Part shown: positions 13,276-18,172 of the stretch, piece after piece
How positions within the stretch are numbered: position 1 is the first letter of the stretch
Layout of the letters: each line of letters starts with the position of its first letter
Assembly (NCBI GenBank): GCA_947589015.1
Contig: CANPZF010000003.1
Coordinates: 3,968-67,967 of the forward strand
Reading direction: 5' to 3'
Source: an uncultured Clostridia bacterium
Lineage (GTDB): Bacteria; Bacillota; Clostridia; TANB77; CAG-508
DNA length: 64,000 nucleotides
Notes under the pieces: model-generated
Told to the model about the DNA's origin: nothing
Databases searched by the model: none
Seen by the model: the letters and a program-made list of their open reading frames with translations, nothing else
Translations under genes and position numbers: made by a program

Positions 13276-13852
13276 ATATGAATTAATTATTGCCTCAAAT
13301 AATAAAGGTAAAATAGAAGAGACTAAAGAAATATTGAATAGTTTTAAAATAATACCAATGGAAGAAGTATTAACCAAAATAGAAGTTGAAGAAGATGAAA
13401 ATACATTTGAAAAAAATGCTATAAAAAAGGCAAAAGTTATTGCTAAAAAATTAGAAGGAAGATTGTGTATAGCAGATGATTCAGGTATTGAAATAGAATA
13501 CTTAAATGGTTTTCCAGGAGTTTATACAAAAAGATGGCACAATGGAACAGATAGAGAAAGAAATTTAGCTATTATTGAAAAATTAAAAGGTGTACCAAAA
13601 GAAAAAAGAAAAATAAAATTTGTTACAGCAATAGCATTATCAAATGGACAAAACACAATTACATCTATATCTAGTATTGATGGATATGTATCAGAAAATA
13701 TTAAAGGGAAAAATGGATTTGGGTTTGATGAAATATTTGAATTAGATAATGGAAAGACACTTGCAGAATTATCTTTTGAAGAAAAAAATAAAATTAGTGC
13801 GAGGAAGAAAGCTTTGCAAATGTTGAAAGATAAAATTATTGAAGAAGATTAG
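13226..13852 (+). CDS. rdgB: XTP/dITP diphosphatase (RdgB/HAM1 family)
   Basis: Ham1 motifs are present: IIASNNKGKIEE, DDSGIEI..LNGFPGVYT.R, GFGFDEIF and SARKKA. The start is uncertain because it overlaps the upstream gene by 50 nt. Confidence 0.8.
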   Translation: MTATFLEKYLKIKKRDKYELIIASNNKGKIEETKEILNSFKIIPMEEVLTKIEVEEDENTFEKNAIKKAKVIAKKLEGRLCIADDSGIEIEYLNGFPGVYTKRWHNGTDRERNLAIIEKLKGVPKEKRKIKFVTAIALSNGQNTITSISSIDGYVSENIKGKNGFGFDEIFELDNGKTLAELSFEEKNKISARKKALQMLKDKIIEED

Positions 13853-13951
13853 TATTAAATTAATATTAATGGTACATAATTAATAAAAGCGTAAAGAAGT
13901 AAAAATTGAAAAATAATTATAATTTTGACTGTGAAAGGAATGTGATTAAAT

Positions 13952-14218
13952 ATGGAATATATATTTGAAACAGAAAATACATGTGCTAGAAAAATTAAAT
14001 TTACATTAGAAGGAAATGTTGTTACTAATGTTGAATTCTTAGAGGGTGGTTGTCCAGGAAATTTGCAAGCACTTCCAAGGCTTGTTGAAGGAATGACAGT
14101 AGAGGAAATAGAAAAAAAAATTGGTGGTATACAATGCGGAGGAAGAGGAACTTCATGTGCAGATCAATTAGCAAGAGCTGTAAGAAAGGCTTATGAAGAA
14201 TCAAAAAAATCAGCTTAA
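13952..14218 (+). CDS. TSCPD-domain protein (TIGR03905-like)
   Basis: It is 88 aa with GGCPGN and CGGRGTSCADQ motifs. Confidence 0.65.
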   Translation: MEYIFETENTCARKIKFTLEGNVVTNVEFLEGGCPGNLQALPRLVEGMTVEEIEKKIGGIQCGGRGTSCADQLARAVRKAYEESKKSA

Positions 14219-14278
14219 AAATTTATAATAAAAAGGATAAAATTATATAATATATAAATTATTATTCTAGCAATTAGA

Positions 14279-14308
14279 TAAAACCTAGATGTATTCTAGG
14301 TTTTTATT
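14279..14308 (+). terminator. rho-independent terminator
   Basis: The stem is AAACCTAGA / TCTAGGTTT with a 5-nt loop, followed by a T-rich tail. Confidence 0.6.
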
Positions 14309-14324
14309 TGAAGGAGGCGATAAA

Positions 14325-14726
14325 ATGAAAATATCTACAAAAGGAAGATATGCATTGAGAGTGATGATAGATTTAGCAATAAATGGTAATGAAAATTTTA
14401 TATCTTTAAAAGATATAGCAACAAGACAGAATTTATCAATTAAATATTTAGAACAAATTATATCTATGCTAAATAAGGCAGGATATTTAGAAACAGCTAG
14501 AGGCAATAATGGAGGATATAAATTAGCTAAAAATCCTAATGAATATAAAGTAGGAGATATACTAAGAGCAACTGAAGGAAATTTAGCACCAATATATTGT
14601 TTAACAGAAGAAGATTGCCAAAGAAAGGAAGATTGTAAAACACATTCTTTCTGGAAGGGATTAGATAATGTGATTAATGAGTATGTAGATAGTAAGACAT
14701 TGGAAGATTTAATAAAGACTACATAA
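14325..14726 (+). CDS. Rrf2-family transcriptional regulator (IscR/CymR-like)
   Basis: It begins MKISTKGRYALRVMIDLA and has a winged HTH. Its position upstream of nifS-nifU is typical. The ATG at 14325 follows an AAGGAGG. Confidence 0.85.
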   Translation: MKISTKGRYALRVMIDLAINGNENFISLKDIATRQNLSIKYLEQIISMLNKAGYLETARGNNGGYKLAKNPNEYKVGDILRATEGNLAPIYCLTEEDCQRKEDCKTHSFWKGLDNVINEYVDSKTLEDLIKTT

Positions 14727-14728
14727 TA

Positions 14729-15200
14729 GTTACAGTTCACAGATATGCTAATTTTTATATTATTGACGTTTTGATAGTAGTAGTAGTATATGTACTTATT
14801 TATAAATCAACGCTTGATTGAAATGAGAAATAGAAATTCTTATATACAAAATTGAGGGATGTTCACGGAAAAAGGATGATTAATATATTCTTTTTCTTTA
14901 CACTCCTCGGCTTGCTACATGACTTAGAAATTCTTGATAAAATCAATCAGCGCCCTCGTGAGGCGAGATTCCCTAATTGATTTTATTTAGAATTTCTACA
15001 GTCATTCCACGGCACATTCGTCGTTTCATTCAAAAGAATATATTAATCATCCTTTTGGCCTGAGTGAAAGCGGCTCAATTTTGTATATTAGAATGTCTTT
15101 TCGAGTGCAATGAACAAGTTGATTTATAAATAAGTACATATACTACTACTACTATCAAAACGTCAATAATATAAAAACTGGCATGACTGTGAATTGTAAC
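14729..15200. repeat. 472-bp foldback element: long inverted arms around a nested imperfect palindrome
   Basis: Bases 14752-14811 are the perfect reverse complement of 15118-15177 (60 bp). The imperfect extension reaches 14729 and 15200. Inner arms 14813-14893 and 15032-15117 match the element at 20030-20173. Confidence 0.85.
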
Positions 15201-15227
15201 AACCATTAACAAAAATTTAGGCATTTT

Positions 15228-15288
15228 ATTTATTTCCTATTGACTTGCTAGGAAATAAATGGTATAATTCCTACTGAATTAATAGGAA
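15228..15288 (+). promoter_or_regulatory. sigmaA-type promoter with two palindromic operator candidates upstream of nifS
   Basis: The promoter is TTGACT (15240-15245), a 17-nt spacer, then TATAAT (15263-15268). The inverted repeat ATTTATTTCCT (15228-15238) / AGGAAATAAAT (15250-15260) overlaps the -35. A second repeat is TTCCTA (15268-15273) / TAGGAA (15283-15288). Confidence 0.55.
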
Positions 15289-15302
15289 AGGAAAGTGAGA
15301 AA

Positions 15303-16484
15303 ATGGATACAATATATTTAGATAATAGTGCAACAACAAAAACAGATGAGGAAGTCATAAAAGCAATGATGCCATATTTAGTAGAAAATTATGGAAATCC
15401 ATCATCTATATATAAAATAGGAAGAGAAAACAAAAAAGCAATAGAGGAGGCAAGGGAAAAAGTAGCCAAAGCTTTAAATTGTGAACCAAACGAAATTTAT
15501 TTTACAGCAGGAGGAAGTGAAAGTGATAACACAGCCATAAGAGGAGTAGCTTATAGTTATAAAAGTAAAGGAAATCATATTATCACATCAAAAATAGAAC
15601 ATCCAGCAGTATTAGAAACATGTAAACAATTAGAAAAAGAAGGTTTTGAAGTTAGTTATATTGGTGTAGATGAAAATGGAATTGTAAACCTAGAAGAATT
15701 AAAAAAAGCAATAAAACCAACAACAACACTTATTACTATCATGTTTGCAAATAATGAAATAGGCACAATACAACCAATAAAAGAAATAGGAGAAATTGCT
15801 AAACAAAATAATATAGTTTTTCACACAGATAGTGTACAAGCAGTTGGAAGTGTAAAAATAGATGTTAGAGATTTAAATATAGACAGCCTTTCATTATCAG
15901 CACATAAATTCTATGGACCAAAAGGAATAGGAGCATTATATGTAAGAAAAGGGGTAAGATTCGATAAATTTATAAATGGAGGGCATCAAGAAAGAAATAA
16001 AAGAGCTGGAACAGAAAATGTTGCAGGAATTGTAGGATTAGGTAAAGCAATAGAAATAGCTTATAGAGATTTAGAAGAACACAACAAGAAAATTAAAGAG
16101 TTAAGAGATTATTATGTACAGCAAGTAACAGAAAAAATACCATATGTTAAAGTAAATGGTGATATGGAAAAAAGATTACCAGGAAACAGTAATATATCAT
16201 TTAGATTTATAGAGGGAGAAGGATTACTCTTAAATCTAGATTTGAAAGGTATTTGTGCTTCAAGTGGTAGTGCTTGTACATCAGGCTCACTTGATCCATC
16301 ACATGTTTTACTTGCTATAGGATTACCACATGAAATAGCACATGGATCTTTAAGAATTTCAATAGGAAAATATAATACAAAAGAAGAAATTGATTATGTA
16401 GTTGAAAGTTTAGTAGAAATAGTGGGTAAACTAAGAGAAATGTCACCATTATGGGAAAAATTTATAGAGGAGGAAAAGAAATAA
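15303..16484 (+). CDS. nifS: cysteine desulfurase NifS/IscS
   Basis: The PLP lysine context is SLSAHKFYGPKG and the catalytic Cys loop is SSGSACTSGS (393 aa). Confidence 0.92.
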   Translation: MDTIYLDNSATTKTDEEVIKAMMPYLVENYGNPSSIYKIGRENKKAIEEAREKVAKALNCEPNEIYFTAGGSESDNTAIRGVAYSYKSKGNHIITSKIEHPAVLETCKQLEKEGFEVSYIGVDENGIVNLEELKKAIKPTTTLITIMFANNEIGTIQPIKEIGEIAKQNNIVFHTDSVQAVGSVKIDVRDLNIDSLSLSAHKFYGPKGIGALYVRKGVRFDKFINGGHQERNKRAGTENVAGIVGLGKAIEIAYRDLEEHNKKIKELRDYYVQQVTEKIPYVKVNGDMEKRLPGNSNISFRFIEGEGLLLNLDLKGICASSGSACTSGSLDPSHVLLAIGLPHEIAHGSLRISIGKYNTKEEIDYVVESLVEIVGKLREMSPLWEKFIEEEKK

Positions 16485-16921
16485 TGGAGTATTCAGAAAA
16501 AGTAGTAGATCATTATACAAACCCTAGAAATGTAGGAAAAATAGAAGATGCTTCAGGAGTTGGAGAGGTTGGAAATCCAGTTTGTGGAGATATTATGAAG
16601 ATGTTTATAAAAGTTGAAAACAATATTATAGTAGATGTAAAATTCAAAACATTTGGATGTGGAGCAGCAATTGCAACAAGTAGTATTTCAACAGAAATGA
16701 TAAAAGGAAAGACATTAGAAGAAGCATTACAATTAAAAAATACAGATGTGGTAAATTCATTAGGCGGATTACCACCTGTAAAACTACATTGTTCTGTTTT
16801 AGCAGAAGAGGCGATACATGAAGCAATAGCAGATTATTATAGAAAAGAAGGAAAATTAACAGAGGAAGAAATAAAAGAGAAATGTAATTTAAAAGAACAT
16901 CATTGTGAACATTGCGGATAA
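16484..16921 (+). CDS. nifU: Fe-S cluster scaffold protein NifU/IscU
   Basis: Its start overlaps the nifS stop (taATG). IscU cysteine motifs are GNPVCGD, TFGCGAAIA and KLHCS. Confidence 0.9.
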   Translation: MEYSEKVVDHYTNPRNVGKIEDASGVGEVGNPVCGDIMKMFIKVENNIIVDVKFKTFGCGAAIATSSISTEMIKGKTLEEALQLKNTDVVNSLGGLPPVKLHCSVLAEEAIHEAIADYYRKEGKLTEEEIKEKCNLKEHHCEHCG

Positions 16922-17019
16922 TATAAAAATACATTAGAATAAATAGTTGAAAAAGAAAAATGCACTTAAATGTTAATTCTTTTTCAACTATTTGTGTTTA
17001 TGAAAGGAATGTGATAAAA

Positions 17020-17439
17020 ATGAAATATAAAAAATTTAATAATACTATAGTGGCAAGAATTGATAAGGATGAAGAAATACTAGAAAAAATAAAACAAATA
17101 GCTTTAAAAGAAAATATAAAATTGGCTAGTGTTAGTGCATTAGGAGCTACTAATGATTTTACAGTAGGAGTATTTAAAGTTGAAGAAAAGAAATATTACT
17201 CAAACAACTTCAAAGGAAATTTTGAAATAGTATCTTTAACAGGAACAATAAATACAATGAATAATGAATTTTATACACATATACACATGAGTGCAGGAAA
17301 TGATAAAGGAGAAGTATTTGGAGGACATCTTAATAGAGCAATTGTTAGTGCAACTTGTGAAATGATAATAAATATAATTGATGGGACGGTTGATAGATAT
17401 TTTGACGAAGAAATAGGATTAAATTTGTTTAATTTATAA
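17020..17439 (+). CDS. PPC (DUF296) domain DNA-binding protein
   Basis: The internal ATG lies after the SD-like GAAAGGAATG. It contains H.H....G...GGH typical of PPC domains. Confidence 0.6.
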   Translation: MKYKKFNNTIVARIDKDEEILEKIKQIALKENIKLASVSALGATNDFTVGVFKVEEKKYYSNNFKGNFEIVSLTGTINTMNNEFYTHIHMSAGNDKGEVFGGHLNRAIVSATCEMIINIIDGTVDRYFDEEIGLNLFNL

Positions 17440-17445
17440 TAATTA

Positions 17446-17488
17446 AAAAAATAGATAACGTACATATGCAAAGTTATCTATTTTTTTA
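17446..17488 (+). terminator. rho-independent terminator
   Basis: The stem is ATAGATAAC (17451-17459) / GTTATCTAT (17473-17481), followed by a T7 run. Confidence 0.65.
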
Positions 17489-17629
17489 TATAAACGCTGA
17501 AGTACAAAGTTAAAGAAAAATTAAATAAGACTAAAAATATTAAGATTTTACGATTTGTTCTATAATAATGAAAAAATGAAACTTTTTTAAAATAAAAAAC
17601 GATTATATAGTATAAGGGGGAACAAAAGA

Positions 17630-18172
17630 ATGAGTACTCAAATTAAGCAAAAAGACTTTGAAAAAATATATCAAGAAACATATTATAAGACTTTAAAATT
17701 TATTGTAATTAGATGTAATAATATAGACGATGTAAATGATATTATTCAGGATACGTATATAGAACTATTAAGAAAAATAAAAAAGAACGTATCGTTAGAT
17801 ATAGATAACATAGATAAATACATATTTGGAATAGCAAATAACGTAATAAAAAGGCATTATTATAAAAAGAAAAAAGAAAATATAGTTTATTATTATGATG
17901 ACGAAAATGATAATTCTTTAGAAATTAAAGATTCATTTGATTTAGAACAAAAAATTATTACAAAAGAAAATGTGAAAGAAGTATGGGATTATATAAAAAA
18001 TAAAGACTTGATAACAACTAAAATTTTTTACTTATATTTTGTTCTAGGCTTAAAAATTTCAGAAGTTTCAAATGAACTAAATATTAGTGAATCAACTAGT
18101 AAAAATAAAATATATAGAACATTAAAAGAAATAAAAAAATATTTAGGAAAGGATGTGATGCAAAGTGATTAA
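17630..18172 (+). CDS. sigma-70 family (ECF-like) RNA polymerase sigma factor
   Basis: Region 2 reads DDVNDIIQDTYIEL. Region 4 has the HTH (GLKISEVSNELNISESTSKNKIYRTLKEIK). Confidence 0.75.
   Translation: MSTQIKQKDFEKIYQETYYKTLKFIVIRCNNIDDVNDIIQDTYIELLRKIKKNVSLDIDNIDKYIFGIANNVIKRHYYKKKKENIVYYYDDENDNSLEIKDSFDLEQKIITKENVKEVWDYIKNKDLITTKIFYLYFVLGLKISEVSNELNISESTSKNKIYRTLKEIKKYLGKDVMQSD

Follow-up and report, generated by a model that had tools for sequence, protein, structure and literature searches.

A long foldback between rrf2 and nifS as a probable member of a multi-copy family of hairpin-forming repeats in gut Clostridia

The DNA analyzed here (a stretch of 64,000 nucleotides, hereafter the window) carries a real 472-bp foldback, as earlier described, between the gene of an Rrf2 regulator and nifS. 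It is probably a full-length copy (copy 1) of a multi-copy, non-coding, non-autonomous hairpin-forming (foldback) mobile DNA element. A second, shorter copy (copy 2) lies in the same window, and related copies of 250–630 nt occur in 15 or more MAGs of Clostridia, recovered from the gut of rabbit, mouse, goat, chicken and human. These appear to form a previously undescribed family of long hairpin-forming repeats specific to a clade of uncultured AT-rich gut Clostridia. Its class is that of palindromic intergenic mobile repeats, among which it stands out by its length, its host clade and a modular, rod-like architecture.

Anatomy of copy 1 and the rrf2–nifS locus

Copy 1 consists of nested inverted repeats (Table 1). 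The original prediction had described 60-nt perfect arms with an imperfect extension to 14729 and 15200, inner repeats and unequal bulges, and all were recovered. The extension is 94% identical over 83 nt, the inner repeats are 14829–14856/15074–15101, 14863–14894/15032–15063 and 14925–14950/14973–14998, and the bulges are those of internal loop 2. Within the window, ATTCTWATATACAAAATTG has exact matches at 14836, 15076, 20053 and 20131 only. Both the inner and the outer repeats of copy 1 are far above chance expectation. Its folding energy as single-stranded DNA is −136.7 kcal/mol, compared with −37.4 ± 4.7 for shuffles (z = −21), and the longest perfect inverted repeat is 60 nt in copy 1 and 78 nt in copy 2, compared with at most 26 nt in 20 shuffled windows. 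Alignment with the termini of L151, a copy from another genome, places the conserved termini of copy 1 at ~14723 and ~15207, so that the true element spans about 14723–15207 and is wider than 14729–15200. The terminal ~20 nt match those of L151, including the difference between the left (ATAATAGTTACA) and the right (AATRGTTGTTACA) end, and within 14729–14751 the left terminus has five mismatches with the right end.

Table 1. Features of copy 1 and position of copy 2 (window coordinates; sides A and B as defined in the text)
Feature	Position	Strand	Remarks
Left terminus	14723–14751		Imperfect inverted repeat of right terminus; conserved between genomes; holds the Rrf2 stop TAA (14724–14726)
Left spacer arm	14752–14811		Exact reverse complement of 15118–15177 (60 nt); sequence subfamily-specific, unrelated to arms of other copies
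Internal loop 1, A side (GCTTGATTGAAATGAGAAA)	14812–14828	+	Non-complementary to 15102–15117; conserved across copies
Helix 2, left arm	14829–14856		Pairs with 15074–15101; covaries (helix 4 in the covariation numbering)
Internal loop 2, A side (GGATGTTCACGG)	14857–14868	+	With the B side, the most widely conserved signature of the family
Helix 3, left arm	14869–14894		Pairs with 15032–15056; lineage-specific sequence, pairing kept through two-sided changes
Apical module	14895–15031	+	Internal loop 3, helix 4 (14925–14950/14973–14998) and G+C-rich apical loop 14951–14972 (CGCCCTCGTGAGGCGAGATTCC)
Helix 3, right arm	15032–15056		Pairs with 14869–14894
Internal loop 2, B side (GGCCTGAGTGAAAGCGG)	15057–15073	+	Motif GCCTGARTGAAAGMGGC retrieves family members in many MAGs
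Helix 2, right arm	15074–15101		Pairs with 14829–14856
Internal loop 1, B side (TTTCGAGTGCAATGAACAA region)	15102–15117	+	Conserved across copies
Right spacer arm	15118–15177		Exact complement of 14752–14811
Right terminus (..GAATTGTAACAACCATT)	15178–15207		Homologous to right terminus of L151; contigs from other loci diverge at 15200–15203
Copy 2, short form	19937–20266	-	Arms 19937–20029/20174–20266; core 20030–20173; A-to-B on minus strand

Four other assemblies (L130–L133) share the identical left junction after Rrf2 and break inside the element. A contig from ENA (L012) contains copy 2 complete and unchanged, along with the second half of copy 1, on its right side. It is scarcely credible that the palindrome is an artefact, chimeric or collapsed by the assembler. 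Short-read contigs do break inside the element, as such an artefact might suggest, but the junctions are identical in five independent assemblies and complete copies of the same architecture have been assembled in many MAGs.

The closest genomes belong to uncultured Clostridia of the rabbit and mouse gut, whose NifS shares no more than 89% identity with that of the window. In related species the spacer between Rrf2 and nifS is mostly 80–260 bp long, and has a small hairpin and the same promoter/operator palindromes with no trace of the element. Exact-protein look-ups found no empty site or polymorphic insertion in the same species, all contigs found breaking inside the element. The Rrf2 protein ends in ..DLIKTT (stop) in the window (14715–14729) and in ..DLIK (stop) in relatives. 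With the true ends at ~14723 and ~15207, the Rrf2 stop codon falls inside the conserved terminus of the element, and the altered C-terminus is consistent with this. Insertion at the very end of the gene thus appears to have rewritten its last codons, and the element now supplies the stop.

Downstream of copy 1 the nifS promoter is intact (−35 TTGACT at 15240, −10 TATAAT at 15263–15268), and so are the paired palindromes around it (TTTCCTATTGAC..TAGGAAA / TAATTCCTAC..TAGGAAA, 15228–15289), which all relatives retain and which probably serve the upstream Rrf2 regulator as its operator. Copy 1 separates Rrf2 from the nifS–nifU iron-sulfur cluster genes and leaves promoter and operator untouched. 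Since both are intact, it probably does no more here than insulate the two transcription units or terminate transcription between them.

Two related species have other, unrelated insertions of ~580–600 bp in the Rrf2–nifS spacer, one with its own inverted repeats (L026:6402–7001) and one with a small ORF (L024:6419–7001); this spacer has apparently received insertions repeatedly. Elsewhere in the window, the region 1729–4211 holds the sole block of minus-strand ORFs (206, 136 and 408 aa, with no Pfam match), the rest being plus-coded, and an intergenic imperfect inverted repeat of 36 nt (75%) around a 17-nt spacer, at 26748–26836, is unrelated to the element family.

Copies in the rabbit-gut metagenome and in other genomes

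Copy number was read from word depth in contigs from four runs of one rabbit-gut sample, a metagenomic depth that is not assignable to one genome. Unique flanks have a depth of ~6–8, the outer arms 50–220, the apical part ~165 and the rest of the core 500–1200; the left spacer arm of copy 1 alone stands at 150–220, compared with 6–7 in its flanks. Both arm types, that of copy 1 and that of copy 2, are repeated 7–25 fold at other loci. About ten different unique flanks abut 19936–19951, others join at 15200–15203 and 20264–20266, and in the rabbit contigs the same core is joined to at least four different arm types. As the arms are multi-copy and have differing flanks, they are not local DNA, and the repeated unit is the entire palindrome, arms included.

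This contradicts the earlier suggestion that the outer arms arose by inverted duplication of the DNA flanking the site. Besides the repetition of the arms at other loci, one arm type occurs in at least 13 copies of a single MAG (JAAWDR01, 87–99% identity), and the ~20-nt ends of copy 1 have homologs in another genome. For the same reasons a local fold-back scar, in which a small palindromic core would have triggered faulty replication or repair and so an inverted duplication of neighboring DNA, is largely refuted and retains very little probability, even though it would fit the perfection of the arms beside the core, the unrelated arms of the two window copies and the arm-to-arm copying described below. 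Of the three readings in the original prediction, that of a non-autonomous foldback element is supported, the palindrome being multi-copy with different flanks and having relatives in many genomes.

The similarity between copies is confined to a core of ~310 nt, equal to window 14811–15118, which comprises three unequal internal loops, three helices and the G+C-rich apical loop. The 22-mer of the apical loop (14951–14972) retrieved 18 copies in five MAGs, all of them palindromes of 250–630 nt, and the loop-2 motif GCCTGARTGAAAGMGGC added more members, found in MAGs from the gut of chicken, goat and human, among them Clostridium sp. CAG:389 and CAG:575. All family hosts have 25–31% G+C. An exact 19-mer of helix 2 gave single chance matches only in GTDB genomes, JGI metagenomes and IMG/VR, where the host species is not represented and the family is too diverged for such a word. 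A protein search for other copies with the small ORFs of the element gave no match, nor did BLAST of the element against plasmid and phage collections.

Two species-level MAGs (CANSMW01 and JAAWDR01) share the same element flank (L143:911–1376 and L209:5988–6191), which represents either an orthologous insertion older than the species split or two very close relatives. Several copies in JAAWDR01 (L135, L144, L158, L185 and L221) lie just upstream of paralogous genes for Big_2-domain proteins; one of these proteins bears a pilin-type N-terminal methylation motif. In the JAAWDR01 subfamily the element looked longer at one end, and the additional length would correspond to the paralogous, hairpin-containing upstream regions of the Big_2 genes beside the copies.

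Covariation, arms, and long and short forms

Applied to nine long-form cores, RNAalifold predicted 127 pairs. Two-sided changes are present in 54 of these, compared with 33.6 ± 2.7 in column shuffles (none of 500 reaching the observed number) and 12–16 when partners are slid; for helix 3 (helix 6 in the covariation numbering) the count is 15 of 28 pairs. Almost all pair cells are Watson-Crick (1072 of 1119), the others including 24 G–T, 16 of them in two invariant pairs, and 12 A–C, and there is no strand-specific wobble excess on either strand. Such near-pure Watson-Crick covariation with no strand excess points to a palindrome maintained at the level of DNA and not to an RNA gene, its complementarity presumably being kept by copying or repair. 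Column conservation in the core is 0.81 for paired and 0.83 for unpaired positions, and 0.52 in the outer arms. A constraint acting on the loops only would therefore apply to the arms and helix 3, but not to all helices. Taking all lineages together, conservation is strongest on both sides of internal loop 2 (GAGGRATGTTCAYGG / GCCTGARTGAAAGMGGCTC).

These data also bear on whether the repeats are structured elements selected by the host, such as a large hairpin RNA, a bidirectional terminator or insulator, or an element 3′ of genes that affects the stability of their mRNA, in which case their multiplicity would reflect function and not selfish spread. The conserved loops and covarying helices, the persistence of the family across many species, and the position of copies 0–10 nt from stop codons, often filling the gaps between convergent genes, would all suit this explanation. 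So would the relatives of the core (window 14811–15074, ~88–90% identical) in contigs of mouse-gut metatranscriptomes (runs X19 and X25), but their depth is just 3–4 and DNA carry-over is possible. It is nevertheless improbable: G–U pairs are not in excess on either strand, Rfam gave no match at an E of 1 or better on either strand of 13500–21500, the core occurs in both orientations relative to neighboring genes, copy 2 lies between divergent gene starts and not 3′ of a gene, no T run of terminator type follows copy 1 on its 3′ side, and truncated and solo-arm copies exist. A known structured RNA family or ribozyme was rejected on the Rfam result, and a structured RNA in general on the lack of a strand-specific G–U excess together with the mixed gene orientation. 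Among 40 copies (the window plus L134–L263, not all of them independent), the A-to-B direction coincides with the C-rich strand in 27 and with the G-rich strand in 13, a weak bias.

Within one copy the arms are identical beside the core, with mismatches confined to the outermost 20–45 nt; between copies they are often unalignable. The spacer arm, 50–130 nt long, varies freely in sequence, but the partner arm remains its exact complement. From one subfamily to another the outer arms differ, and conservation between genomes returns in the terminal ~20 nt, the conserved terminus amounting to ~20–30 nt with slightly different left and right ends. The core is found in either orientation relative to these unequal ends among different copies, an observation relevant to the invertible segment that the original prediction had also considered. 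L140 and L151 are symmetric B–B copies, with an inverted B side in place of the A side, and an opposite-strand joint is seen in rabbit contigs. One arm can therefore be copied over the other in this family. An internal deletion that keeps both termini (L136:3040–3260) and a solo arm (L144:3794–3849) are decay products typical of transposons.

When the four half-elements of the window are aligned, two unlike sides, A and B, can be distinguished, and the plus strand reads from A to B in copy 1 and from B to A in copy 2. The similarity of the two copies reaches ~14782–15147 and 19992–20211, beyond the core recognized in the original prediction, which had also not stressed the long arms of copy 2 (93 nt, 98%). 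The core of copy 2 is 144 nt long, and has at its center one copy of the helix-3 sequence (20091–20116); like the other short forms, it contains no apical module. The distance from the A loop to the B loop is 215–225 nt in most lineages and 49–59 nt in short forms, with intermediates of 82 and 133 nt. In the window and in JAAWDR01, short forms are centered on the helix-3 sequence that long forms in that genome carry. Deletion intermediates also exist, in L221 with both helix-3 arms around an 8-nt loop, and in L161 and L164 with a 7-bp stub. Copy 1 had been described as the core of copy 2 plus a central insert of ~138 bp, which is accurate as a description, but the direction of change is probably the reverse. 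Because long forms are widespread across lineages and deletion intermediates exist, recurrent loss of the hairpin tip is the simplest reading. Copy 1 is more likely the canonical long form and copy 2 a deletion derivative.

The same modularity could have been built up from within, by independent palindromic elements inserting into the tips of others (the outer element first, then the shell of loops 1 and 2, then the apical module), each insertion splitting a hairpin loop into an unequal internal loop and the composites spreading by their outermost ends. In agreement with this, the apical module is found alone with unrelated arms in L148, different apical modules occupy the same position in L214 and L242, the apical helix resembles helix 2 (TAGAAATTCT.. 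motif), one MAG has the same core with three unrelated types of arm and terminus, and the helix-3 sequence is single in the short form and present as two inverted copies in the long form. This remains rather unlikely, however. No outer element consisting of arms only (an empty one) was seen, long forms of constant size (215–225 nt) are common in distant lineages, and the deletion intermediates make loss the simpler explanation of the short forms. Serial insertion would also have to postulate a mechanism for an inverted target duplication, and unrelated arms are equally expected from neutral drift of a spacer that has only to pair.

Mobility and the closest known systems

Of the 12 complete copies, nine have an end no more than 10 nt from a stop codon, and some take up the entire gap between convergent genes. 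The genes recurrently found beside copies encode Big_2 surface proteins, ABC transporters and Mur ligases, while those of the window neighborhood are housekeeping genes. A clean direct repeat at the ends was found in one of 13 copies (L141, 9 bp) and in neither window copy, the boundaries being somewhat uncertain; this frequency is a poor fit to a cut-and-paste transposon and no proof of single-strand transposition. Neither the window nor the surroundings of ~40 copies (8-kb loci, examined by ORF clustering and then Pfam) contain a transposase or other mobilizing gene.

Since target duplications are missing, a classical cut-and-paste MITE is less likely. Copy 1 as a non-autonomous foldback element could be mobilized in trans by an enzyme that reads single strands, by analogy with what has been proposed for REPINs and RAYTs or for the ends of IS200/IS605. 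The unequal loops and the termini would then be cis-acting sites, read on the folded single strand by the trans-encoded enzyme, and movement would take place without regular target duplication. The identity of the arms may be restored by hairpin-templated repair or by arm–arm recombination, and the short forms, arising by repeated deletion at the hairpin tip, would still be mobile.

A more specific proposal, put forward tentatively, is that the family represents a new type of REPIN-like replicator, a rod-shaped DNA hairpin of 0.3–0.6 kb that persists clade-wide. Its conserved unequal internal loops would be read on folded single-stranded DNA by a dedicated single-copy enzyme, and hairpin-templated copying would keep its arms perfectly complementary. 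Long near-perfect palindromes are normally unstable in bacteria. If the proposal is true, bacteria tolerate tens of near-perfect palindromes of several hundred bp each. The family, with stems of up to ~300 bp, seems to occupy tens of sites in each genome, immediately next to gene ends, and would account for the breaks at gene boundaries in short-read assemblies of these organisms. It offers a natural system for studying how hairpin DNA is recognized, copied and kept symmetric, and points to an undiscovered mobilizing enzyme.

Some other candidates were rejected. The attC sites of integrons are imperfect palindromes of 57–141 nt with R″/L″–L′/R′ boxes (GTTRRRY), which occur in cassette arrays near an integrase. 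Copies of the element are 250–630 nt long and dispersed among housekeeping genes, and the window has no array or integrase. A retron and a single-strand origin were likewise rejected.

REPINs offer the nearest parallel in several respects. They, too, are non-coding, multi-copy, exclusively intergenic repeats with no internal transposase, which persist for long periods in a bacterial lineage and are presumably acted upon as a folded single strand. In REPINs the conserved parts are split by a spacer that only needs to pair, and compensatory changes are common (PMC3116915). The element has a comparable division into conserved inverted blocks (the A and B sides) and parts that need only pair (helices and arms, which vary with paired changes). 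In the element, however, the conserved blocks are the unequal internal loops and the termini, and the free part is the outer arm. REPINs are also smaller (~70–110 nt, built on REP units of 20–25 nt, versus 250–630 nt), have mainly Proteobacteria and not Clostridia as hosts, and show no sequence similarity to the element. A REPIN–RAYT system has in its genome a single-copy gene for the RAYT (Y1 HUH), typically flanked by the repeats; no RAYT-like gene lies near the element copies examined.

With MITEs and other palindromic repeats, such as Correia (CREE), ERIC, RUP, BOX and RPE, the element shares its small size, lack of autonomy, presence in multiple copies and ends in inverted repeat, as well as internal-deletion derivatives that keep both ends. 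These repeats are also gene-adjacent, and can act there as terminators or RNA-processing sites. Terminal inverted repeats are thus present as in MITEs, but MITEs have a target-site duplication of fixed length and a parent IS with the same ends, whereas direct repeats flank one of the 13 copies here, and no parent element with the same ends and a transposase was found in the ~40 loci of 8 kb or in the window. Furthermore, the element is palindromic in its entirety, with arms that differ between subfamilies.

The ends of IS200/IS605 and the PATEs derived from them likewise involve no target duplication and the recognition of imperfect hairpins in single-stranded DNA, and one subfamily of the element has a possible TTAC-type motif at its left end (GTTACA at 14729). 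Their hairpins are, however, short and subterminal, with no long terminal inverted repeats, while the inverted repeats of the element run from end to end. No TnpA or TnpB gene is associated with the element, and its strand bias is weak. A PATE inserts 3′ of a fixed tetra- or pentanucleotide. The element was not assigned to the PATEs, having end-to-end inverted repeats and no common nucleotide motif before its ends across subfamilies.

The Foldback (FB) elements of eukaryotes differ in host domain, are unrelated in sequence and have arms made of tandem subrepeats; like the element, they have a center flanked by long inverted arms that vary in length and sequence, and many of their copies are non-autonomous.
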